Shown one piece after another: positions 39,932 through 51,405 of a DNA stretch of 64,000 nt. Where the stretch lies: contig CAVXLD010000001.1 of NCBI GenBank assembly GCA_963762565.1, positions 1,088,001 through 1,152,000 on the forward strand, read 5' to 3'. Each line of letters opens with the position of its first letter. Positions within the stretch are counted from its first letter, which is position 1. The notes under the pieces were generated by a model that saw nothing but the letters and a program-made list of their open reading frames with translations, made no database searches and was not told the DNA's origin. The position numbers were made by a program, and so were the translations under genes. This DNA comes from an uncultured Verrucomicrobiae bacterium (GTDB lineage Bacteria > Verrucomicrobiota > Verrucomicrobiia > Chthoniobacterales > JAFAMB01).

Positions 39932-40014
39932 GGGACAGGTCAACAGTCGGCAAGAGTCTGTCGCTATCGACCGTATCATGCCGGCAACCGGCTCAATCAA
40001 TAATTGACCTGTCA
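39932..40014. repeat. family D paired sites, degenerate right half
   Basis: GGGACAGGTCAA at 39932 and TTGACCTGTCA at 40004. Confidence 0.75.
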
Positions 40015-40180
40015 TTCTGCCGCTGGGGCATGCATAGTCGTGCGAGTGGCCGGAACGTAGGGCGCGTGATGAGGGGGGTACTTTTCCCTCGAAGCTGACC
40101 TGGAGAACAAGTCACCTGGGACTAAGGTCCAATAGCGCTACCAAGCCCGGCCGGCGATAACTGCTAGGAGCCCACAGCAA

Positions 40181-41149
40181 ATGAATCATGAAGGCAATTG
40201 GCTGCTCCCCAGTGGTGGCGGAGCGCAGCGGAATATCAGGCGGCGGGTCATCTCTCTTGCTATTTGGATCGCAGGTTGCACTCTGCTATTCAGTCCCTGC
40301 GCTCCGGTTCACGCCGGATGGCTAGAAGCGGACGTCGACTTCTCGAATTACGATGTGCCGTTATTCCAGCAGATCGTCAACCGCATCAAGGCCAAGGTTG
40401 CAGCCCGATTGGGAGAGGGCGTAAATACGCAGGACCGCTATTTTATTGTTCCGTTCGCTTTCCAAAAAAGGTGGAATAATCCGCAGTTTTCGCACTCGTT
40501 CATCTCCGTGATCCGCGTGCTCGGCGACGGCAAACAACCAAACCTCAGTCCGGGACTCCGGCGCGGGCGATTCAAGAACCGAGATTTTGAAGCATTTACC
40601 ATCAGCTGGGTGCCTCACGATTATGGTACTAATCCGGTGTGCGTTTTCGATGGCTTCGGCAGTCGGATTTTTCCAACCTGGAACAAATGTCCTATTGTCG
40701 TCGGGAGAGACTTCAGGCTGGCTGAGACACTGAAGGTCGCGCTGAATGACAAAAGTTCCGTCGGCATGTGGGGACCCTACGAGATCAGGAAAGAAGCGTT
40801 TGAGCTTGGCGTGAAGCGGATGCTTTTGCTCGACGGAGGAACTATCAAATATAAAGCCGATGACCGCCTTACTCGTAAGGATCAAGTCGCGATCAATTGT
40901 TTCCATGCGATGGCGAACTTGGAAGAACTTTATCCTAACGGCGGATTTCTAGGGTCGGGATTTAGGATGTGGGGAATCAATGGCACCGCCCGAGTTCTGA
41001 TCGAATACACCAAGGCGGTTCGTAACAGAGGCCTGCTGCTTGAGCCGGTCGATATCAAAAAAGATCTCTACGGATTTGTGTACGCCCCGGAGAGGAATAG
41101 CGGTGGCCTCTACGATCCTTTTCCGAACGCATCTGCGTACCACCAGTAG
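40181..41149 (+). CDS. secreted hypothetical protein
   Basis: 322 aa, AGGAG RBS, signal-like segment; SHSF and INCFH motifs. Confidence 0.7.
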   Translation: MNHEGNWLLPSGGGAQRNIRRRVISLAIWIAGCTLLFSPCAPVHAGWLEADVDFSNYDVPLFQQIVNRIKAKVAARLGEGVNTQDRYFIVPFAFQKRWNNPQFSHSFISVIRVLGDGKQPNLSPGLRRGRFKNRDFEAFTISWVPHDYGTNPVCVFDGFGSRIFPTWNKCPIVVGRDFRLAETLKVALNDKSSVGMWGPYEIRKEAFELGVKRMLLLDGGTIKYKADDRLTRKDQVAINCFHAMANLEELYPNGGFLGSGFRMWGINGTARVLIEYTKAVRNRGLLLEPVDIKKDLYGFVYAPERNSGGLYDPFPNASAYHQ

Positions 41150-41249
41150 GAATTCGTCCAATCGAAATGCGGCAAGTCTCAAAGACATCCGAGCCGCGGT
41201 TCGCAGCGAAGCGTGTGGCTGCGCTGCTACATTCTCTGATCGGGCGACG

Positions 41250-43919
41250 TCATTCACTTCTCTGCCTCGCAGCATCGGCGATATCACGAGCCACGAGCGC
41301 GGTCCAGCCGGTCTGGTGGCTTGCGCCTAGACCTCGACCGGTCTCGCCGTGGAAATATTCGTGAAAGAGGACAAGTTCGCGCCAATGCGGATCAGCTGCG
41401 AATCGGAGATCGTCTCCGTGACACGGGCGCCGTCCTGCGGCATCCGGCAGAAAAATACTCGCCAACCGCGCACCAAGTTCGTTCACGACTCCTTGAAGAT
41501 TCATCATACGACCCGAACCAGTAGGACATTCCACCTGCAACTTATCGCCGTAAAAATGGTGGTACCGCTCCAGTGCCTCGATCAGCAAATGGTTGACAGG
41601 AAACCAAATCGGTCCGCGCCAATTCGAGTTGCCGCCGAAGAGGTGAGTGCGGGATTCGCCGGGATCATAGTCGACGCGATGCTCTACGCCTTCCGCTATA
41701 AAGACGCACGGACTTTTCTCGTGGAACTTCGATAGGGACCGGATTCCATAAGGCGAGAGAAACTCACTCTCGTCGAGCATATAACTCAGCAGGCGCTGCA
41801 AACGCTCGCGCGCCGGAATCGCCAGTAGAAATCGTTGACTGTCGCCGTGCTCGTAAAAGCTGATATTGTGAGCAAGATCGGGACGGTGGTTTATGAACCA
41901 GGCCGCCCGTTTGTAGAAACCTGGAAGTTTCTTGATTGTTTCCCCCTCCAGGACTTCGGTCGCGATCAATGGCAACAGTCCGACCAGGGAGCGTGTCTTG
42001 AGTGGGATGGCGCTCTGATCGGTCCGCAGCTGGTCGTAGTAAAAGCCGTCCTCTTCGCTCCAAAGCCCGCTGCCGCCGAGTTGGTTCATCGCATCTGCGA
42101 TCTGGACGAAGTGCTCGAGAAACTTCGATGCCATGTCCTCATAGGCCCGATAAATACGCAGTCCTTCGCCAACCGCCAGCTCCAGCGCCATCGAAAGCAT
42201 TGTGGCGCAGTAAAACGCCATCCAGGCGGTGCCATCGGCCTGCCGGAGGACGGCTCCGTTTGGCAAGACCTGAGAGCGATCGAACACGCCGATGTTATCC
42301 AACCCAAGGAAGCCGCCCGAAAACAGGTTCTCACCGTTCGCATCCTTACGGTTCACCCACCATGTGAAATTGAGCAGCAGTTTCTGAAAGACGCTTTCGA
42401 GAAAGTCGCGGTCCCGTGCGCCCCGCTCGCCCGAGATTTTATAGACGCGCCAGGCGGCCCAGGCATGCACTGGTGGGTTCACGTCCCCAAAGGCAAACTC
42501 GTACGCCGGAATCTGGCCGTTCGGATGCATGTACCATTCCCGCAACAGTAGAATCAATTGCTCCTTGGCGAACTCTGGGTCGATATGAGCCAGCGGGATC
42601 ATGTGGAATCCAAGGTCCCATGCGGCGAACCATGGATACTCCCACTTGTCCGGCATCGAAATGATGTCGCGGCTATAAAAATGACTCCAAGCTTTGTTGC
42701 GGCCCTGCAGCCGACCGGTGGGCGGCGCCGGACCGGACGGATCGCCGCTAAGCCAATCCTGAACGATGTAGTGATAGAATTGTTTGCTCCAGAGCAGCCC
42801 TGCGGCGGCTTGGCGTACCACGCCCTGCTCGATACTGTTAAACTTTATCCTGTACAGAGAGCCGTAGTACTCATCAGCCTCACGCATGCGTTCGGCGAAC
42901 ACCGCGTCAGAGTCCGGAGCCTTCGTCGAAGCCTCCTGCTCATTGAAAAGCCGCAAGGAGATGGTTTGCGTGGAATAGGATGGGATGCGCAAAACATAGT
43001 GGAGAGCTGCCTTCGTGCCGGTCTTTGCTGGATTGACGGCGCCGTCCTTACCGTGAATAACGTAGTCGTGAAATGCGTCCTTAAAAAACGCGTGGTCGGG
43101 CCCGAGATTGTACAAGCGGCGCGTGTTCGTGTCATTCTCTGTAAAGAGCGCAAGCGGACGGGGAGAATCCGGGGTCGTCCCGCTATCGAGCAGATAATGG
43201 CCGAGCGATTCATGATGGAGCGAGAGACTGTCGGCGCCTGCCCACGTAATCCTCGGTTTAGTGGCACTGCGTTCATCGATCGCGCCCCATGACCAAGTGT
43301 TGCGAAACCAGACGGTCGGTAGCAGGTGAAGCGTCGCTGCCTCGGCGCCGCGATTGGCCGCAGTGAGGCGGATCAGGATGTCGTTAGGCCCGTTTTTTGC
43401 ATACTCGGCCGTGATATCGAAATAACGACTGTCGTCGAATACGCCGGTATCCAAAATCTCGAATTCAGGATCGTCTTTGCCCCGGCGTCGATTCTCCGCC
43501 ACCAGCTGCGCGTATGGGTACTCGGCCTGCGGATATTTATAAAGCGCCTTCATGTAGGAGTAAGTCGGCGTCGCGTCGAGATAGAAGTATTGCTCCTTCA
43601 CATCCTCTCCATGATTCCCTTCCGGACCCGTCAAGCCGAAGAGGCGCTCTTTCAGAATCGGATCCTTGCCATTCCACAACGCCAATGCGAAGCAAAGCCG
43701 GCATTGACGATCGGCGATGCCGAGCAGTCCGTCTTCCCCCCATCGGTAGGACCGGCTTCGAGCATGATCGTGCGGGAAGTAATCCCAACAACCGCCGTCT
43801 GGGGAGTAGTCTTCGCGCACCGTGGCCCACTGGCGCTCCGATAGATAAGGTCCCCAACGTTTCCAGTTTGCCTCACGCTGCGCATCGGCTGTAAGACGCG
43901 CCTTCTCGGCATTGCTCAT
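41250..43919 (-). CDS. MGH1-like / GH63-type glucosidase
   Basis: WKRWGPYLSERQW, MPDKWEYPWFAAWDL, GGFLGLDNIG, GLGASHQTGWT; start trimmed to ATG 43919. Confidence 0.92.
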   Translation of the reverse strand: MSNAEKARLTADAQREANWKRWGPYLSERQWATVREDYSPDGGCWDYFPHDHARSRSYRWGEDGLLGIADRQCRLCFALALWNGKDPILKERLFGLTGPEGNHGEDVKEQYFYLDATPTYSYMKALYKYPQAEYPYAQLVAENRRRGKDDPEFEILDTGVFDDSRYFDITAEYAKNGPNDILIRLTAANRGAEAATLHLLPTVWFRNTWSWGAIDERSATKPRITWAGADSLSLHHESLGHYLLDSGTTPDSPRPLALFTENDTNTRRLYNLGPDHAFFKDAFHDYVIHGKDGAVNPAKTGTKAALHYVLRIPSYSTQTISLRLFNEQEASTKAPDSDAVFAERMREADEYYGSLYRIKFNSIEQGVVRQAAAGLLWSKQFYHYIVQDWLSGDPSGPAPPTGRLQGRNKAWSHFYSRDIISMPDKWEYPWFAAWDLGFHMIPLAHIDPEFAKEQLILLLREWYMHPNGQIPAYEFAFGDVNPPVHAWAAWRVYKISGERGARDRDFLESVFQKLLLNFTWWVNRKDANGENLFSGGFLGLDNIGVFDRSQVLPNGAVLRQADGTAWMAFYCATMLSMALELAVGEGLRIYRAYEDMASKFLEHFVQIADAMNQLGGSGLWSEEDGFYYDQLRTDQSAIPLKTRSLVGLLPLIATEVLEGETIKKLPGFYKRAAWFINHRPDLAHNISFYEHGDSQRFLLAIPARERLQRLLSYMLDESEFLSPYGIRSLSKFHEKSPCVFIAEGVEHRVDYDPGESRTHLFGGNSNWRGPIWFPVNHLLIEALERYHHFYGDKLQVECPTGSGRMMNLQGVVNELGARLASIFLPDAAGRRPCHGDDLRFAADPHWRELVLFHEYFHGETGRGLGASHQTGWTALVARDIADAARQRSE

Positions 43920-43977
43920 GCCGGTGTCAAACTCCCCTTCACCGCGAGTGCCCATCATGTAACGCGTGCGATACTGG

Positions 43978-45174
43978 TCACGCCGTTGTCGAGAAACCGC
44001 CTCGTCTTCCAACTTGCCCAGCGGCGGCACCGTTACCAACACCAGCACTCCGCTGCCCCAAGATCTGCTGACCATGCGCTTCGGCCCGCGCGAACACGAC
44101 TTTGTACACCTGGCAATAAGGATCCTTGGCTAACAGCGTTCCCTTCGCGCTGTAAGTTCGCACAGGACATCCGCCGTGGCAGATCGATAGGTAGCGGCAG
44201 GCCAGGCAGTCTTCATGCTCCATTAGATGCTTCGGCCGCTCCACGAAATCCTGCCGCGCTCGACTGGTTTTTAGCATCCGCGTAAGGTCGGGTTCGCGGA
44301 ACATATTACCAAAGAAGTATTCGGGATAGCTGGTAACCCAGCAATCGCACTGAGCAACCGTCCCTCTGGCGTCCACTGAGATAAATTGATTGGAGCAGTT
44401 CTCTTTCCAGATACAGGGTAAACGTGCCGGTCGGCCGACGAAGTGATCAATCAAGGCATCGAACGGACCCAGCGATACACCAGCGTCGTAGCCTTTCTGT
44501 ATCCAGATATCAAAGAGCTCACCGAGAAACCGGGCCAGTTCACCATTATCGAGTTGAAAGCCGCCTTCGACATCTTTCGCCGGGCCACCGGCAAACGGGG
44601 TATTCACCTGGAAATCATCGAGACCAAGGTCCTCGGTGAAGTACCGATAGAACCTCTCCGCGCCGGCTTCCAGACTGGCTTTATGGAGTACGGCAATGAC
44701 CCCGATCTTGATGCCTGCTTCGCGTGCTTCGTGCAGCCTTTTAGTCCAAAGTTTAGTGTAAGCTTCCGCACCGCTCTTGATAAGCTTCCGATGGACATTG
44801 GGATAGTCCATCGACGTTCCGACGGATCCGTTAAACATCCCATGGATTACCCTATTCCACGATGGTGAATAGCTAATAAGATTCGTTTGTAGATAGTGAA
44901 CGAATTTGCGTCCTTTCTCCGCGGCAGCGCGTCCCATAAGATTTCCAGCGTCTGCAAACCAGTCGGGACCCATAATCATCGCTTCTCCGCCCTGCCAATA
45001 GATCTCGCAAACTTCGATATTCTCATGTTCGAGATGGTCAAGCAGTCGCCGAGTTAACAACGGGAGCAACGCCGGTGAAAGTCGATGCGGTTCCTTGTGC
45101 TCAAAGCAGTAATCGCAGGCGACGTTGCACTCTGACGTCGGTAGGAGGATCACGCTGAAGACTCGTCCGTTCAT
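43978..45174 (-). CDS. radical SAM/SPASM-domain peptide maturase (anSME-like; candidate cyclophane synthase)
   Basis: CNVACDYC, WQGGE, LQTN; SPASM cysteines CIWKENC...QCDC...CLACRYLSICHGGCP...YC. Confidence 0.93.
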   Translation of the reverse strand: MNGRVFSVILLPTSECNVACDYCFEHKEPHRLSPALLPLLTRRLLDHLEHENIEVCEIYWQGGEAMIMGPDWFADAGNLMGRAAAEKGRKFVHYLQTNLISYSPSWNRVIHGMFNGSVGTSMDYPNVHRKLIKSGAEAYTKLWTKRLHEAREAGIKIGVIAVLHKASLEAGAERFYRYFTEDLGLDDFQVNTPFAGGPAKDVEGGFQLDNGELARFLGELFDIWIQKGYDAGVSLGPFDALIDHFVGRPARLPCIWKENCSNQFISVDARGTVAQCDCWVTSYPEYFFGNMFREPDLTRMLKTSRARQDFVERPKHLMEHEDCLACRYLSICHGGCPVRTYSAKGTLLAKDPYCQVYKVVFARAEAHGQQILGQRSAGVGNGAAAGQVGRRGGFSTTA

Positions 45175-45189
45175 CAGTAGGGACTCCGG

Positions 45190-46104
45190 TTATTCTACGG
45201 GCGACGCCAGGGGTCCAACCTTCGCCAGCTCCTCTGTTTGATCAGCACGATCTCGGTTGGCAAGCTCGTGACCCATCTCATCGGCAGCAGCCTTTATGGC
45301 GAAGAACAACTGTTTGACTCCTCCGCAATCGTAAGCGGGATCCGGCCACTTGAAGTATCCTTGGCAGATCTCTTGGAAAGGACAAGTCACACACTCGGCG
45401 TCTTGCTCCAGTAGGCGTCTAAACCAAGCCTCCACAAAAGTCGTGGACGAGAGATCCGATGACGGAGAACTGAAGCCGCCGGGTAATTCAAAGCCGACGC
45501 CCACTCCTCGACGCAGAAATAAAGCTGGGTCTTCTTCAAGAATCATCCAGAGCGAACCGTCGCCGGTGCCGCACATGGCAGCCAACACCGAATGGAAGAA
45601 CTCTACCGGCGCTTCCACCATCGGATCACGAAGGTAGAAGGTTACCGCCTCGGTCAATTCAATTAGTACTTCAGGAGATGGTTGCCCCGGCAGTAATCGC
45701 ACCGGCAGTCGCAATGCGATAGCCACCTTGACGGCTCTAAGAAACCCGGGCGAGGCAGGCATACTCACCCTGACGTCACGGACGGCAAAGACGTCGACCA
45801 GTCGATACAAATCGGAAAACTGCGAACCGGGATCCGTAATGAGGACATCCAGAGGAACATTCGATGTGCTTTGCGCCGCCGGGATCCAAGCATCCTGATC
45901 GCTGAGCAACTCCTCTACTTGGATCCATTGTAAGCTAGCCGGGGCATTACTAAGCCATTGGCTAAGTTCAGCCCGGCTCCTGACGATGGCGACAAATGGG
46001 CTCCCACCGTGGCCGGACGCTAAATCGGACCGCAAGAAAAGAATGGGCCAATCGGGTTCTAGCGGCGCGCTATTGTACCCATCATTTACCAGCGGTTGAT
46101 CCAT
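45190..46104 (-). CDS. hypothetical protein with SPASM-like Cys-rich C-terminus
   Basis: CVTCPFQEICQGYF...YDC; no CxxxCxxC; sits between precursor and rSAM genes; start uncertain. Confidence 0.75.
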   Translation of the reverse strand: MDQPLVNDGYNSAPLEPDWPILFLRSDLASGHGGSPFVAIVRSRAELSQWLSNAPASLQWIQVEELLSDQDAWIPAAQSTSNVPLDVLITDPGSQFSDLYRLVDVFAVRDVRVSMPASPGFLRAVKVAIALRLPVRLLPGQPSPEVLIELTEAVTFYLRDPMVEAPVEFFHSVLAAMCGTGDGSLWMILEEDPALFLRRGVGVGFELPGGFSSPSSDLSSTTFVEAWFRRLLEQDAECVTCPFQEICQGYFKWPDPAYDCGGVKQLFFAIKAAADEMGHELANRDRADQTEELAKVGPLASPVE

Positions 46105-46433
46105 GAACCTCCGCCGCCATAGTACCGGCGGTTAATCCAGCCGCCACCACCCCCGCCGCGACCATTCAACCAGCCACCACCGCCACCCCAGCCTCCCCGG
46201 CCGTTGATCCAGCCGCCGACGCCCCCGCCAGCTCGCCGATTCACCCAGGCGCCAGCCTGAGCCGCCGGTGGAGATGCCAGCCAAGCGCCGCCGATTATTG
46301 CCGCCGCAATTGCGGCCCCTGACCATTTGCCCAGGCTTTGTAGAAACCACCGGCGTCCGAGCAGTTCCTGATTGTCACCTGAGCCGGTTGTTCCAGCAGA
46401 GTGCTCACTTTTCATAACCGTAAAATCGGCCAT
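46086..46433 (-). CDS. putative RiPP precursor: Tat signal plus Gly-rich core with five W-x-N motifs
   Basis: GRRWFLQ twin-Arg motif, hydrophobic helix, AQA site; core contains WVN, WIN, WLN, WIN, WIN. Confidence 0.85.
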   Translation of the reverse strand: MADFTVMKSEHSAGTTGSGDNQELLGRRWFLQSLGKWSGAAIAAAIIGGAWLASPPAAQAGAWVNRRAGGGVGGWINGRGGWGGGGGWLNGRGGGGGGWINRRYYGGGGSWINRW

Positions 46434-46436
46434 TTG

Positions 46437-46931
46437 TTAGGCGTCTTCCTTGCCCGTTGCCCCTGTCAACGTTGAGAAATGCATGGCAGCGATCCGCCAT
46501 TTGCCGGCCTCTTTTGCGACGGTAAGGGATAGGTTGATGGGGTAGGTGAACTCTTTCCCAGCCTTTTCGCCCGAGATATTTCCGGACGTCATCAGCCAAC
46601 CCATGTCAGTGCCAACCGCCGCTATTTTGAATTGGTATTCGTACTTTTGTTTTCCCTCGTCGAAACCCTGGAAGAAGTGCTGATAAGCAACTTTGATCTC
46701 ATCCGGACCGGACCAGATCTCTCCGGGACCGGTTCCCATGATAGCGGCCTTTTCAGTCAGGCATGCCATAACCCCCTCGAGGTTATGGTTAGTGAAGGCT
46801 TCATCGTGCGCCTTTAATAAAGCGCGAATCGGCTCTATCTCTGGATTTTCGGATGTCTCCGCATTCACTGCGGTAGGCAGCGTGGCAGCAATGCTAACGA
46901 CCCCGGCGATAATTGCTTCTCTTCGGTTCAT
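46437..46931 (-). CDS. Tat-signal NTF2/SnoaL-like protein
   Basis: MNRREAII signal with VNA site; IRALL...AF...NLEGVM; C-terminal KEAGKWRIAAMHFS. Confidence 0.85.
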   Translation of the reverse strand: MNRREAIIAGVVSIAATLPTAVNAETSENPEIEPIRALLKAHDEAFTNHNLEGVMACLTEKAAIMGTGPGEIWSGPDEIKVAYQHFFQGFDEGKQKYEYQFKIAAVGTDMGWLMTSGNISGEKAGKEFTYPINLSLTVAKEAGKWRIAAMHFSTLTGATGKEDA

Positions 46932-47424
46932 AACATCATTTTCTGGCGATCCCGAAAGTGTTTCTCGTTCGCAGTGGCCGATTCCTTAATCGAAAACGAC
47001 TGCATCATCCTGTTCTTGAGCCGGCTGGGGACCGCTTTGCAAGATTTCCCCAAGAAGGCGCGCCCTCCAATATCTATTGCAGCGCGTTGTAAGAGCTTTT
47101 GTGTATGGCAAAAGAGGCTCAGATTTTGACAACTTTCTAAACTCGAATACACGCTTATGTCCGTAAGAACATATGTGTGGCACTGAATCGTAGACTCGTT
47201 TTCGATTACAATCGCGTAGCGTACGCCAAAGATGATCGACGCAGAGAATCCGCTCTCTGTTGCAGAATTGGTGAGACTCACCGAACACGCAGGAATCCGC
47301 CGCGGAACTGCGGGATAGGACTAGGGCCTAATATCCGGTACGCAGCCGGAATAGTACGACGCTACCAGTTCGGTTCCGACCGAGGTCGAAGCTATAAAAT
47401 CTTGAAGTTTCAGACATAGTCGCC

Positions 47425-47796
47425 ATGCTGGCGGGAGATTTTGTTGCAACGATGGAACCTCCCGCCTTACCCAACGTAAAGGGACGTTCATCGAAACGGC
47501 GGTGGAAAAGTTTTGCCTGCTATCTTCCTCTGGCAACCATCGGACTGCAGATTGCCTGGGGCGTATTACTTTTCGTGGCGTTGATCTTCGCAGTCGGCGA
47601 TACTCCCTACAGAAACACCCCAAGTAATCAGCATCTATTCGAATTCATCGGGGCATTGCCCGCGATAGCAGGATCGATTTTCGGAGTAATCGCGATGGTC
47701 TGTCGTTGGCCACAAAACCCGGTCGATTGGATAGGTCTCATCGGGGGCACTATCGTTTGTTCTGTTCTTGCTATCTGGCTCGGAGGTTTTTTGTAA
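47425..47796 (+). CDS. small membrane protein (three TM)
   Basis: Three hydrophobic segments in 123 aa. Confidence 0.55.
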   Translation: MLAGDFVATMEPPALPNVKGRSSKRRWKSFACYLPLATIGLQIAWGVLLFVALIFAVGDTPYRNTPSNQHLFEFIGALPAIAGSIFGVIAMVCRWPQNPVDWIGLIGGTIVCSVLAIWLGGFL

Positions 47797-47821
47797 CTTT
47801 AAGTACCAATTGTTGATGACA

Positions 47822-48046
47822 ATGGACAAAGACGTAGAACACTTAAAGCTACTCTCGATTTTCTATTATATCGTGGGCGGGCTGGCCTGCTTTTGTGGAC
47901 TGTTATGGATACTATATATCGTATCCGGCGTCATTCTGGTAGTCGCGTCGGGATCTATGGCAAGTGACGATCGCATGGGAGCATCTATCGGCGGCGTCGC
48001 GGCCGCTATCGTCGGTCGTCTTGCGACTCTAGCGTGCGGTAGTTGA
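47822..48046 (+). pseudogene. probable truncated membrane protein
   Basis: EHLKLLSIFYYIVGGL N-terminus, ends within the second TM. Confidence 0.45.
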
Positions 48047-48174
48047 CTACCTGGCATTCTTTGTTCCGGCTGCCGGAACTATTGTCTAGATGGCGTCGCC
48101 GAGCTTCCGCGATCCGACGAACAATGTTGTCGTTCCTCGCACCAGGCATATCAGAACACAACTTCCGGCACTGC

Positions 48175-49080
48175 GCAGTCACCGATCTAATGGAACCGGA
48201 TCGCATTGTGATTGGATCGAACAGCCAGCGGGCGTTAGCGATTATGGAAAAGGTTTACGCGCCGTTTTCGGCGCCAATTATGGTGACGGATGTCAAGAGC
48301 GCTGAGTTGATAAAGCATGCGGCCAACTCGTTTCTTGCGCTCAAAATTTCTTATATCAACGCGGTGTCCGCAATTTGTGAGACCACTGGAGCAGATATTG
48401 AACAGGTCGCAGAAGGGATTGGGGCGGACAAACGAATCGGAAGGAGCTTTTTCAGCGCCGGTCTGGGATATGGAGGGTCTTGCTTTCCGAAGGACCTTGC
48501 CGCCTTCATTGCCATCAGCGAACAAATTGGCGAACCCTTCCAGCTCCTGCGCGAGGTCCAGAGAATAAACCGCCAGCAGCGCGAACGCTTCGTAAAGAGA
48601 TTACGCGACACTTTGTGGGTGTTAAAAGAGAAGCGAATCGCAGTTTGGGGTCTTACCTTTAAACCACATACCGACGACGTTCGCAGTTCGGTGGCCGTCG
48701 ATCTGGTAAACGATCTTATTCGGGAAGGCGCCCTCGTGACCGCCTACGACCCAAAAGGCAACCAAAAGGTTCAAGAGCTCAATCTTTGTCCAGGAGTTCA
48801 TCTGGCCAAGTCCGCGCTCGAGGCTGTGCAGGATGCTGAAGCATTAGTCTTAGCAACGGAATGGCCCGAGTTCAGTGAAGCGGATCTCACAGAGGTATAT
48901 CAGCGGATGCATATGCCAATCGTTTTCGACGGAAGGAATCTATTCGATCCGGCTACCATGCGAGATCTCGGTTTCCAATACTTCGGCATCGGGCGTCCGT
49001 TGGACGACCCCGGCGACAGTAACCGGAATAGTAACGGCACAAGCACGCGTGGCGACCTCGTTGCCCTCCGCTCTAACTGA
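48175..49080 (+). pseudogene. ugd: UDP-glucose/GDP-mannose dehydrogenase, 5'-truncated
   Basis: PDRIVIG, SAELIKHAANSFLA.KIS, GYGGSCFPKD, GLTFKPHTDD present; N-terminal GxGYVG Rossmann half absent. Confidence 0.85.
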
Positions 49081-49139
49081 CCATCCTCAGCACGCCGCGG
49101 ACTCTCTCGGAAAATTGGTCTAGCCGCGGCGGCGATCAA

Positions 49140-49625
49140 TTACTCTTCGCCATCGAAGTAGTCGACGGCTTTTCCCTTCAGAACCGGCCCATTCAGATTC
49201 GAGGGTAATCCCCATTTGTCGCTGTCCGGATAATAACAGGTTTCACCCACCGGATTGTCAGCGATGATGTAAAACACGAGTTCTTCACTGCCGTCGTTGA
49301 TGATTTGATGAGGCTCGCCGGGAGCGCAAAAGACGGCATCGCCGCTGGTTAGCTCAGTTAAACCCTGGGGCGTTCTGAATTTGCCGGATCCGGACAAGAT
49401 CAAGTAGAGCTCTGATTGGCTAGAATGAGCGTGGTACGGACAAGGGGAAATGCCCGCGGGTACACGACAGAGTTCCAAGTCGAAGGGGTGACTATTCTGC
49501 TTCGAATCCGAATCCTTAATATGCCCAAGAGCCTGTGAAATGTTTTGGCTGAACGATCGGAAACGGCTGGCAGGTGAAGGTGGATTCTCTTCCACCGGCA
49601 CCTGACAGAGATTTACTTTACGCAT
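49140..49625 (-). CDS. cupin domain protein
   Basis: PYHAHSSQSELYLILSG...PHQIIN; CYYPDSDKW. Confidence 0.9.
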   Translation of the reverse strand: MRKVNLCQVPVEENPPSPASRFRSFSQNISQALGHIKDSDSKQNSHPFDLELCRVPAGISPCPYHAHSSQSELYLILSGSGKFRTPQGLTELTSGDAVFCAPGEPHQIINDGSEELVFYIIADNPVGETCYYPDSDKWGLPSNLNGPVLKGKAVDYFDGEE

Positions 49626-49792
49626 TGTGATCTGCTCCTCCAGAACAACGAGCTTTGCAATATGGGTTTTCAGGCTGGGACAAGGTCTCGAAGTGATTGT
49701 GGCGCCGCCTAACTTTCACCAACCGAGTTTCTTTAAACCATTTCCACTGAACGACACTTGATTTGGCGTGCTCAGCCGGGGTTACGTCTATA

Positions 49793-51405
49793 GGGGCTGT
49801 TGCCCAATAGCGCCTAATTAGTATGAGGATTTTGGGTTAGTAATTGGAAGGTTTGGCGAAGGGTTAGCTTGGCAAGAAGGAGGTTGAAATCGGGTGAAGG
49901 AGCCGGGTGAGCCAGCGGAGCAACTGAGTAAGGCGATAGGCTAGCGCAGGGTTGGTTTGGGAGAGATGCCTGAGGAGTTTTCTCAGGTTCTGTACCGTAG
50001 CAATGAGTAAGTCTTGGATAGCTTGCTTCCAAAGTCCACGCCAACGAGAACGCTTGAGCCCATGACGATTGGCGGCGTCGGCAAAGCTCCTTTCCATGAG
50101 ATGTTGGCGGCGTTTAAGGTCGGCTTTAGCAGCCTTGGAGTTAGCAATTTTGCGAGCCTTTTCTAACCAGGCTTGATCCCGATGGCGGTGAATGGTGCGT
50201 CCGGTGCGGGAACGAGTGCACAAGGCGCGCAGCTTGCACACTAAACAGGTCCCCTTGGCGGTGACATATTCCCAGGTCAAGCGCTTGGGGTGTAAGCGCC
50301 TGGCTTTCATGATCTGCTTGGCGGGACAGAGATAGGTATTAGTCTGTGCATCGTATCTAAAATGCTCGTCGGAATAAATGCCCTCGCTTCGTCCCTTACC
50401 TCGGATCGACTCCCCCAGCAGCTTCACATGGGCTTTAATCCCCGCTTTTTGACAGCTAATCAGGTTGCTGACGCTGCCGTAACGCGCATCAGCAATCACA
50501 GTTCGCACTGCTTGATCGGTAGTATCTTCATGAGCTTCAATGAGCCTCAACAGTTGCGAGGCTTCGTCGACCGCACCGGTGGTGGTCTCTACGGCGGTGA
50601 TGATCTCATGGGCATCGTCGACTACTCGATGAGTCTTATAGCGTAAGCGGCTCTTTAGGCCGGCGTGTCGAACTAGAGTCGCATCCGGGTCGGTCGTACT
50701 GCGGAACTGGCGATTGGTTTTGGAGTATTGGCCAATGGCAGAACCGCCGCTGCCGCTGTCCCCTGATGGCGGATCTTGGTCTTGGTCGGGTTCATCGAGC
50801 TTTTGCACTTGCTCTTTGGCAGTTTGCTCGATGGCATTGAGCGTCTCCGCAGACAGGGGCTTAACTGAACCCAGATTGGCATCGGCCTCCACTAGGCTCG
50901 CATCCACGTGGATCTTACGGCCTTCTACCAGACCAGCCTCCACGCACTGCTGCACTACCCGGCTAAATAGCGAGACAAACACTTCTTTACCCCAGCGCTT
51001 GCGCGCCTTGCTCAACACACTGTGGTCGGGAATCTGATCGTCTAGCCCATAGCCAAGAAACCAAAGGTAATCCAGCCGTTCAGGGATGATGCGCATCAGC
51101 TCCCGCTCGCTCTTGATATCATCCAAGAATAACAACAACATCATCCGGACAATCACTTCGGGCGGAACCGACTTGTTGCCTCTTCGCCCATAAGTGTGCG
51201 CTACCTCCTTACGCACAAAACTCAAATCTAACGCCGCCCTGATCCGCCGCAGTGGATGATCGTCCCGCACCCGCTTATCTAAATTGACCCGATAGCTCCA
51301 GATCGGAACCTGCGAGTCTTCTTCGTCCATCATGGGAACAATACACTATCAAATCTGTAACCAGCAAAGCAATACTATAATGGTTATTAATTGGGCAACA
51401 CGCCC
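49793..51405 (-). mobile_element. IS1182-family insertion sequence, copy 2 (inverted)
   Basis: Same length, ends and translations as copy 1; flanks TATA and TTGA do not match each other. Confidence 0.92.
49864..51333 (-). CDS. IS1182-family DDE transposase
   Basis: Protein identical to 24353-25822. Confidence 0.92.
   Translation of the reverse strand: MMDEEDSQVPIWSYRVNLDKRVRDDHPLRRIRAALDLSFVRKEVAHTYGRRGNKSVPPEVIVRMMLLLFLDDIKSERELMRIIPERLDYLWFLGYGLDDQIPDHSVLSKARKRWGKEVFVSLFSRVVQQCVEAGLVEGRKIHVDASLVEADANLGSVKPLSAETLNAIEQTAKEQVQKLDEPDQDQDPPSGDSGSGGSAIGQYSKTNRQFRSTTDPDATLVRHAGLKSRLRYKTHRVVDDAHEIITAVETTTGAVDEASQLLRLIEAHEDTTDQAVRTVIADARYGSVSNLISCQKAGIKAHVKLLGESIRGKGRSEGIYSDEHFRYDAQTNTYLCPAKQIMKARRLHPKRLTWEYVTAKGTCLVCKLRALCTRSRTGRTIHRHRDQAWLEKARKIANSKAAKADLKRRQHLMERSFADAANRHGLKRSRWRGLWKQAIQDLLIATVQNLRKLLRHLSQTNPALAYRLTQLLRWLTRLLHPISTSFLPS

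Follow-up and report, generated by a model that had tools for sequence, protein, structure and literature searches.

A conserved four-gene cassette with Trp-x-Asn repeat precursors, a twin-arginine-type leader, and a pseudo-radical-SAM partner

Within a 64,000-nucleotide (nt) stretch of a genome from an uncultured Verrucomicrobiae bacterium (contig CAVXLD010000001.1, positions 1,088,001 to 1,152,000; here referred to as "the window," with coordinates counted from its first letter), four packed minus-strand genes form a real, conserved, and apparently unnamed cassette for a peptide synthesized ribosomally and modified after translation (RiPP) that is triceptide-like in its substrate logic. The genes encode an NTF2/SnoaL-like protein (gene 1; 46437 to 46931; 164 amino acids [aa]), a precursor peptide (gene 2; 46086 to 46433; 115 aa), a pseudo-radical-S-adenosylmethionine (SAM)/SPASM protein (gene 3; 45190 to 46104; 304 aa), and a radical SAM/SPASM enzyme (gene 4; 43978 to 45174; 398 aa). 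Genes 1 and 2 are separated by 3 nt, genes 2 and 3 overlap by 19 nt, and genes 3 and 4 are separated by 15 nt; a first-pass annotation made from the sequence alone had given this layout, and we found the same coordinates, gaps, and overlap. Judged from the protein sequences, the distinctive features are a leader of the twin-arginine translocation (Tat) type with an embedded Lys-Trp-Ser (K-W-S) tag and the pseudo-enzyme partner. Our reading of the whole, which we consider evenly poised between right and wrong, is that the product is a RiPP with rings joining Trp to Asn Cβ, that its Tat signal doubles as the leader, and that it is matured with the pseudo-enzyme.

Conservation of the cassette and its precursor

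The gene order recurs well beyond the window. A scan of GTDB genomes yielded 75 loci, 10 of which had less than 2 kb of upstream sequence and were set aside; in 62 of the 65 scored, the genes for the NTF2-like protein, a W-x-N peptide, and the gene 3 product lie upstream of the enzyme. Of 80 metagenome loci retrieved, 44 were set aside and 36 had 2.6 kb or more upstream; the cassette was complete in 34 of these, several of them near-duplicates. Both the conserved four-gene order and the link between enzyme homologues and W-x-N peptides, which the first-pass annotation had put forward as checks, are thus present in genomes and metagenomes alike. Cassettes were found in Verrucomicrobiota, Acidobacteriota, Syntrophobacteraceae, and others. 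The closest enzyme relatives in the GTDB genome scan are from Verrucomicrobiota (up to 86% identity), and the order holds at ~50% enzyme identity in Acidobacteriota and Syntrophobacteraceae. Across 20 distant regions the order is mostly the same, with one locus (L117) rearranged yet complete and three (L111, L116, and L118) partial or decayed. With a gene 3 profile, full-length matches came from 14 of 201 genomes in the host's order (leaving out the host, 11 of the 22 in its family), from 18 of 122 in the class to which a Syntrophobacteraceae genome belongs, and from 7 of 201 in that of an Acidobacteriota genome. The cassette is widespread but patchy, since a phylum-wide sample gave no full-length gene 3 match in 300, with nine weak matches to its Cys end only. 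No match was found in plasmids or viral contigs.

For comparison of the precursors, peptides were chosen by their W-x-N core, not by their leader, from 93 loci (two duplicates having been dropped), and 76 passed the filter. These carry 3 to 12 W-x-N motifs each, and 356 of the 365 core Asn residues in 63 precursors lie within such a motif. At the middle position I, V, A, or L predominates, the linkers are 5 to 21 residues long, and the number of motifs varies. The core of the window peptide (residues 61 to 115; 46086 to 46253, minus strand) presents five W-[IVL]-N-[RG] motifs on Gly linkers, with Trp at W63, W75, W88, W99, and W111, and ends in W-I-N-R-W. All five of its core Asn lie in W-x-N, an arrangement of five motifs reached in only 1 of 200,000 shuffles of the core. 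These are aromatic-x-x three-residue motifs of the kind by which triceptides are recognized (PMC11499958). One precursor sub-type (L007, L008, L010 to L013, L017, L019, L020, L022, L060, and L065) has W-I-N-R-W-G-P-R-R repeats and a far higher Trp and Arg content than the type with Gly linkers; each repeat's second Trp would give extra crosslink options. A role as BamA inhibitor, considered for the many cores that end in R-W or R-F, was set aside because many others end in R-R.

A Tat signal consists of an R-R-x-F-L motif, an uncharged h-region, and an A-x-A site, and the window precursor fits this consensus. Its leader (residues 1 to 60; 46254 to 46433, minus strand) has R27-R28-W-F30-L31, a K36-W37-S38 tag, an uncharged Gly/Ala h-region, and a predicted signal-peptidase site at A58-x-A60, so that the 60-aa leader with its twin-arginine motif, hydrophobic stretch, and AQA, and the 55-aa core with five W-x-N, are as described in the first pass. 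Conservation of the twin-arginine motif, which that annotation had also expected, is nearly complete: [RK]R-x-F-[LF] is found in 75 of 76 precursors (72 RR and 3 KR), the lone exception lying in a decayed locus. The uncharged stretch that follows has a median length of 19 residues, a small-x-small site is present in 73 of 75 precursors (A-x-A in 61 of 75), and 30 to 36 residues separate the motif from the first Trp. These leader statistics fit export by Tat and cleavage by signal peptidase I, and a TatC gene is present in the genome. Positions +9 to +11 are K-W-S, with K in 74, W in 75, and S in 75 of 75 precursors, and none of the 21 other Tat-like open reading frames (ORFs) of the genome has K-W-S at that place. 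The tag is kept more strictly than Tat needs and is absent from those other ORFs, and the export signal of the NTF2-like protein drifts between types; we therefore infer that something besides export constrains the leader, as expected for a recognition sequence.

The enzyme and its partner proteins

Gene 4 is a radical SAM/SPASM enzyme, as first annotated: it has the SAM motif CxxxCxxC (C16/C20/C23) and scores 54 bits on the SPASM domain model TIGR04085 against a cut-off of 27. Its eight SPASM Cys align with those of the anaerobic sulfatase-maturating enzyme (anSME), so that both auxiliary Cys sets are kept, and the tested Cys motifs are present in all 62 enzyme rows. C276-D277-C278 is invariant, D277-C278 following an auxiliary Cys where anSME has D-F. 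The enzyme lacks an N-terminal extension of the RRE type. Its earlier likening to GrrM/OscB-type maturases is not borne out by the family models, on which it scores 74 bits for GrrM/OscB (TIGR04261; cut-off 310), 60 for XyeB (450), 56 for FxsB (370), 67 for YhhB (445), and 62 for AmcB (425). Scores are higher on anSME (TIGR03942; 141 against 349), DynA (138 against 450), DarW (130 against 650), and DarE (116 against 650); ChlB matches mainly the N-terminal part. Five homologues score alike, with 69 to 87 bits on TIGR04261 in all six proteins tested. The enzyme passes no named maturase family tested and, since all these scores fall far below cut-off, the case for cyclophane chemistry rests on the substrate motif and not on the enzyme family.

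A second radical SAM protein of the same genome scores 382 bits on the GrrM/OscB model, over the cut-off, and 157 on the anSME model. Because this true GrrM outscores the cassette enzyme on the latter, the enzyme's anSME score is background for this fold. The cassette is not the GRRM system. It resembles GrrA/OscA and GrrM/OscB (TIGR04260/TIGR04261) in having a Gly-rich precursor with repeated Trp-x-Asn and an enzyme without an N-terminal extension; the bond that OscB forms runs from Trp C7 to Asn/Asp Cβ (PMC11002830). It differs in the low TIGR04261 scores of its enzymes, in the twin-arginine leader with K-W-S, in the added dead paralogue and NTF2-like partner, and in an enzyme that keeps both auxiliary Cys sets. 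The window peptide does not match TIGR04260, and 5 of 10 precursor homologues match weakly (12 to 22 bits against a cut-off of 31), on a model that is insensitive here and also misses the genome's own GrrA-like peptide (18.6 bits). That peptide belongs to a canonical GRRM pair in this non-cyanobacterial genome (L077:906-2652; G000:C7, ~198,000 to 199,800), which adjoins nitrite/sulfite reductase and formate/nitrite transporter genes; it is 147 aa long and has a signal-like N-terminus and eight W-x-N (mostly W-G-N), without RR-x-F-L.

Gene 3 had been listed as an unknown protein, which holds insofar as it has no match in Pfam or NCBIfam; its predicted fold is that of a degenerate radical SAM/SPASM protein. 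The AlphaFold2 model (mean predicted local distance difference test [pLDDT] 91.3) is a six-stranded partial barrel with a SPASM-like end. Foldseek ranked ChlB first (E 3.7e-5) and then anSME, and VIA-align gave ChlB at Z 13.2 (root mean square deviation 3.8, 253 aligned), anSME at 12.2, 5wgg at 10.8, and TigE at 10.7, against 8.9 for the next, unrelated match. The top structural matches are peptide- or protein-modifying radical SAM/SPASM enzymes. Gene 3 probably arose by an ancient duplication of such an enzyme, because its profile aligns with that of the gene 4 family (probability 87%, E 3.8e-6, 165 columns). The SAM-binding CxxxCxxC is found in none of 159 aligned rows of the gene 3 family, and with this loss the protein should be incapable of cleaving SAM in the usual way. 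One four-Cys site is kept (C238, C241, C247, and C260), like the second auxiliary cluster of SPASM domains, and C-x2-C-x5-C-x-G is present in 89 of 97 rows; the protein probably keeps one Fe-S cluster. A search of 50%-identity representatives gave 303 relatives with E values of 0.001 or less. Six longer relatives (P0072, P0127, P0153, P0083, P0113, and P0131) fuse the gene 3 domain to HxsC-like radical SAM, HemN-like radical SAM, DUF483, or methyltransferase domains. Such fusions fit a role for this domain as a substrate-holding platform and are possible tailored variants of the system; no fused form came from a metagenome scan with P0072 or from the 80 metagenome loci. For genes 2 and 3, the ESM Atlas returned unnamed clusters only, one with 17% SPASM members.

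Two analyses addressed the three proteins together. A complex prediction of enzyme residues 1 to 372, precursor residues 20 to 70, and dead-copy residues 16 to 290 scored 0.81, with 0.00 and 0.00 for partner-replaced controls and 0.78 for an enzyme-replaced control, and does not bear on binding either way. The enzyme, dead copy, and leader show correlated distances (0.80 to 0.91), which reflect shared descent and do not tell which protein binds the leader.

The NTF2-like identity first proposed for gene 1 stands, with a SnoaL_3 (PF13474) score of 52 bits against a cut-off of 22. Its AlphaFold2 model (pLDDT 94.8) gave generic NTF2-fold matches only. The protein has a predicted N-terminal export signal of its own, twin-arginine-like, spanning residues 1 to 24 with an A-x-A-type end; among homologues, these signals drift between RR, RK, and non-RR types. 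G66, E71, N133, W145, H151, and S153 are invariant in 96 homologues.

A proposed maturation route and its competitors

We propose that the precursor, a Tat-type signal followed by 3 to 12 Trp-x-Asn motifs, is very probably modified in the cytoplasm by the radical SAM/SPASM enzyme. The enzyme would probably take a hydrogen from Asn Cβ and bond that carbon to the Trp ring two residues upstream, at a cost of 2 Da per motif (up to 10 Da in the window peptide), to yield a string of three-residue cyclophanes. Rings of this type are suggested because the Trp-to-Asn Cβ bond at i+2 is what OscB and XncB form (PMC11002830) and because the same would be expected in the branch of the anSME-like DarE, whose links to an aliphatic partner residue are C-C (PMC10705402); xenorceptide A2 contains a W-V-N ring (10.1101/2024.12.16.628070). 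On balance, the dead paralogue would take the place of an RRE, binding the leader at R-R-x-F-L...K-W-S and presenting the core. A loose precedent for such a leader binder may be TrnC and TrnD of thuricin CD, a two-radical-SAM complex whose members are needed together and in which only one radical activity is strictly essential (PMC12093266). The likeness is partial: TrnC and TrnD are both active enzymes with RRE domains, whereas gene 3 has lost the SAM-cluster motif and neither cassette protein has an RRE-sized extension.

There is good reason to expect that the ring-bearing peptide would leave through the housekeeping Tat translocase and be cut after A-x-A by signal peptidase I, a route on which a dedicated protease and exporter would not be needed. 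The first pass had seen neither a peptidase nor an ABC exporter, and none is conserved in the flanks of 95 loci. Of 37 clusters of neighboring genes there, 16 were scanned against Pfam without a clear peptidase or ABC exporter among them; the others held cassette genes or what look like opposite-strand shadows, or were present in 4 to 6 loci. No non-cassette neighbor occurs in more than 16 of the 95 loci; an RND pump (16 loci) and GH1 (15 loci) are seen only among one group of related loci. The alpha/beta-hydrolase found close to 10 of the 95 was rejected as leader protease, its Peptidase_S9 match being below cut-off. More speculatively, the exported NTF2-like protein might bind the Trp/Arg-rich product, or complete it, once beyond the inner membrane. 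With no conserved exit through the outer membrane, the product more likely acts in the periplasm or at the surface than as a secreted antibiotic.

Other known systems share parts of this scheme. XyeA/XyeB, DynA, DarE, and DarW also involve Trp-Asn C-C rings (XncB at i+2, dynobactin at i+3), and the anSME-like DynA, DarE, and DarW models are among the best-scoring for the cassette enzyme; it nonetheless stays below the cut-offs of 450 to 650 for this group and XyeB. Xye clusters have a Gly-Gly leader with a dedicated protease and transporter (10.1101/2024.12.16.628070), unlike the cassette, with its long repeat core and no such genes. Bufferins and oxazolins, which are MNIO RiPPs with Sec signal peptides and a periplasmic product (PMC11626156, PMC12452194), are similar in combining a general export signal in place of a leader with a partner protein. 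They differ in enzyme class, modified residue, and route (Sec), and their signal is dispensable for modification.

Several observations weigh against the scheme as a whole. The window precursor matched no curated Tat model, TIGR01409 reached 2 of 10 homologues at 16.0 and 14.2 bits, just under its cut-off of 16.7, and none of 8 homologues had a Pfam family. No cyclophane-synthase family cut-off is passed and scores on the triceptide models are low, while the nearest solved relative of the enzyme over its full length is anSME, whose Cys-Asp (C276-D277) is kept. Some loci are incomplete, with the enzyme but no peptide in L014, L057, and L193, the dead copy without the enzyme in L116, and decayed sets in L111 and L118; 10 of 95 loci have sulfatase genes in their flanks. 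Finally, the bufferin signal peptide is dispensable for modification (PMC11626156), and a signal therefore need not act as leader.

Retention of the anSME Cys-Asp makes other chemistry at the same motif the main rival, one that we regard as unlikely but serious. Under it, an anSME-like site would act on W-x-N by Asn desaturation, β-oxidation, indole-N linkage, or epimerization, with cassette and export unchanged. The invariant C276-D277-C278, the full set of eight anSME-type Cys, and the low GrrM, XyeB, and FxsB scores are in its favor, as is the finding that DarE, of the same branch, yields ether, C-C, β-oxo, or formylglycine products depending on substrate (PMC10705402). Against it, the strict i, i+2 pairing of Trp with the 356 of 365 Asn noted above matches known Trp-Asn triceptide rings. 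An O2-derived ether in particular is unlikely, because the partner is aliphatic and the cassette occurs in the 18 of 122 genomes of the class holding the Syntrophobacteraceae genome, which we take to be anaerobes.

A different doubt concerns export. If R-R-x-F-L were only a recognition leader for the enzyme, or if the leader were an uncleaved membrane anchor, neither Tat nor signal peptidase would release the product. The excess conservation of K-W-S, the failure to pass curated Tat models, and a Lys nine residues after the first Arg of the twin-arginine motif would suit this, yet the tripartite signal is kept across phyla in its uncharged stretch, cleavage site, and spacing before the first Trp; the loci conserve no other protease or exporter; and the co-encoded NTF2-like protein is signal-bearing as well. 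We therefore consider it improbable. We give a little less credence again to a reading without a free natural product, in which the modified peptide would serve an exported complex with the NTF2-like protein as small subunit or cofactor carrier. That gene is almost always adjacent, even in the rearranged L117, and its signal-bearing product has invariant polar E71, N133, H151, and S153, but a motif number of 3 to 12 and linkers free to vary are unlike a stoichiometric subunit, and the NTF2 model matches generic NTF2 proteins only. That the enzyme is an ordinary anaerobic sulfatase maturase with the peptide as bystander is very hard to credit: its top score is on TIGR03942, Cys-Asp is kept, and sulfatases lie near the 10 loci mentioned, but 141 bits falls far short of 349 and is less than the 157 of the genome's true GrrM, no sulfatase match of the genome falls on the cassette contig, and the enzyme-peptide link is near-obligate.

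The ring-forming, Tat-exported route can be extended into a wider reading that we hold to be doubtful when all of its parts are taken jointly. Tat signal-binding chaperones of redox enzymes provide the analogy. The dead duplicate would read K-W-S both as a substitute for an RRE and as an export proofreader, keeping the signal away from the translocase until ring formation is complete; signal peptidase would then release the poly-cyclophane core for hand-over to the co-exported NTF2-like partner. The enzyme would represent an independent origin of Trp-x-Asn rings in the anSME branch.

Genomic setting and significance

The G+C fraction around the cassette (0.53 to 0.58) is the same as that of the window. 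Directly downstream is an MGH1-like/GH63 glycoside hydrolase gene (41250 to 44075, minus strand), whose ORF as called overlaps the enzyme's unconserved tail; its true start is probably near 43,958, and this adjacency is not kept in other loci. Two ORFs lie 1 to 4 kb upstream, an ORF that resembles UDP-glucose dehydrogenase in its central and C-terminal domains only (48043 to 49080) and a DDE transposase with DUF772 (49864 to 51333). Arylsulfatase genes a few kb from the cassette (10 of 95 loci, with L104, L108, L113, L117, L118, L122, L047, L051, and L069) belong mostly to the distant clade. An Rfam scan of 40,000 to 50,000 of the window gave no match, and promoter and terminator scans at the cassette performed no better than chance. 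By eye, six loci (L040, L042, L045, L048, L052, and L055) have TTGAC ~35 nt before the gene 1 start codon and a -10-like box ending a few bases before the ATG, which suggests very short or absent 5' leaders. Two soil metatranscriptomes gave small word shares only (0.16 and 0.05), and contigs of relatives cover parts of all four genes; we used neither as evidence of expression, given that contigs cannot show transcription, strand, or level.

In the literature library that we searched, from which the main triceptide surveys were missing, there was no description of the cassette or of a Tat-signal radical SAM RiPP. Its taxa and motifs were not found in the available supplements of PMC11499958, PMC10288494, and PMC9062424, and the available part of PMC10885120 mentions neither Tat nor signal peptidase. 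The unnamed clusters 19 and 63 of PMC9062424, which have aromatic-x-Asn motifs, may overlap with the cassette. General-pathway signal peptides on RiPP precursors are described as highly unusual, and Sec use in the native host as shown for bufferins only (PMC12452194); the word "Tat" does not occur in the main text of that paper or of PMC11626156.

If the Tat route is correct, it would suit a precursor made rigid by its rings, and it would make a dedicated protease and exporter unnecessary, which would be useful for producing macrocyclic peptides. A pseudo-radical-SAM protein acting as a leader-binding helper would be a new answer to how maturases without an RRE find their substrate, and the proteins in which its domain is fused to tailoring domains suggest further variants. 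Carriers are available in culture (Chthoniobacter flavus Ellin428 and Verrucomicrobium sp. BvORR034), and the cassette is therefore directly testable. It resides in abundant, little-studied soil and sediment lineages, including half of the sampled genomes of the host's family.

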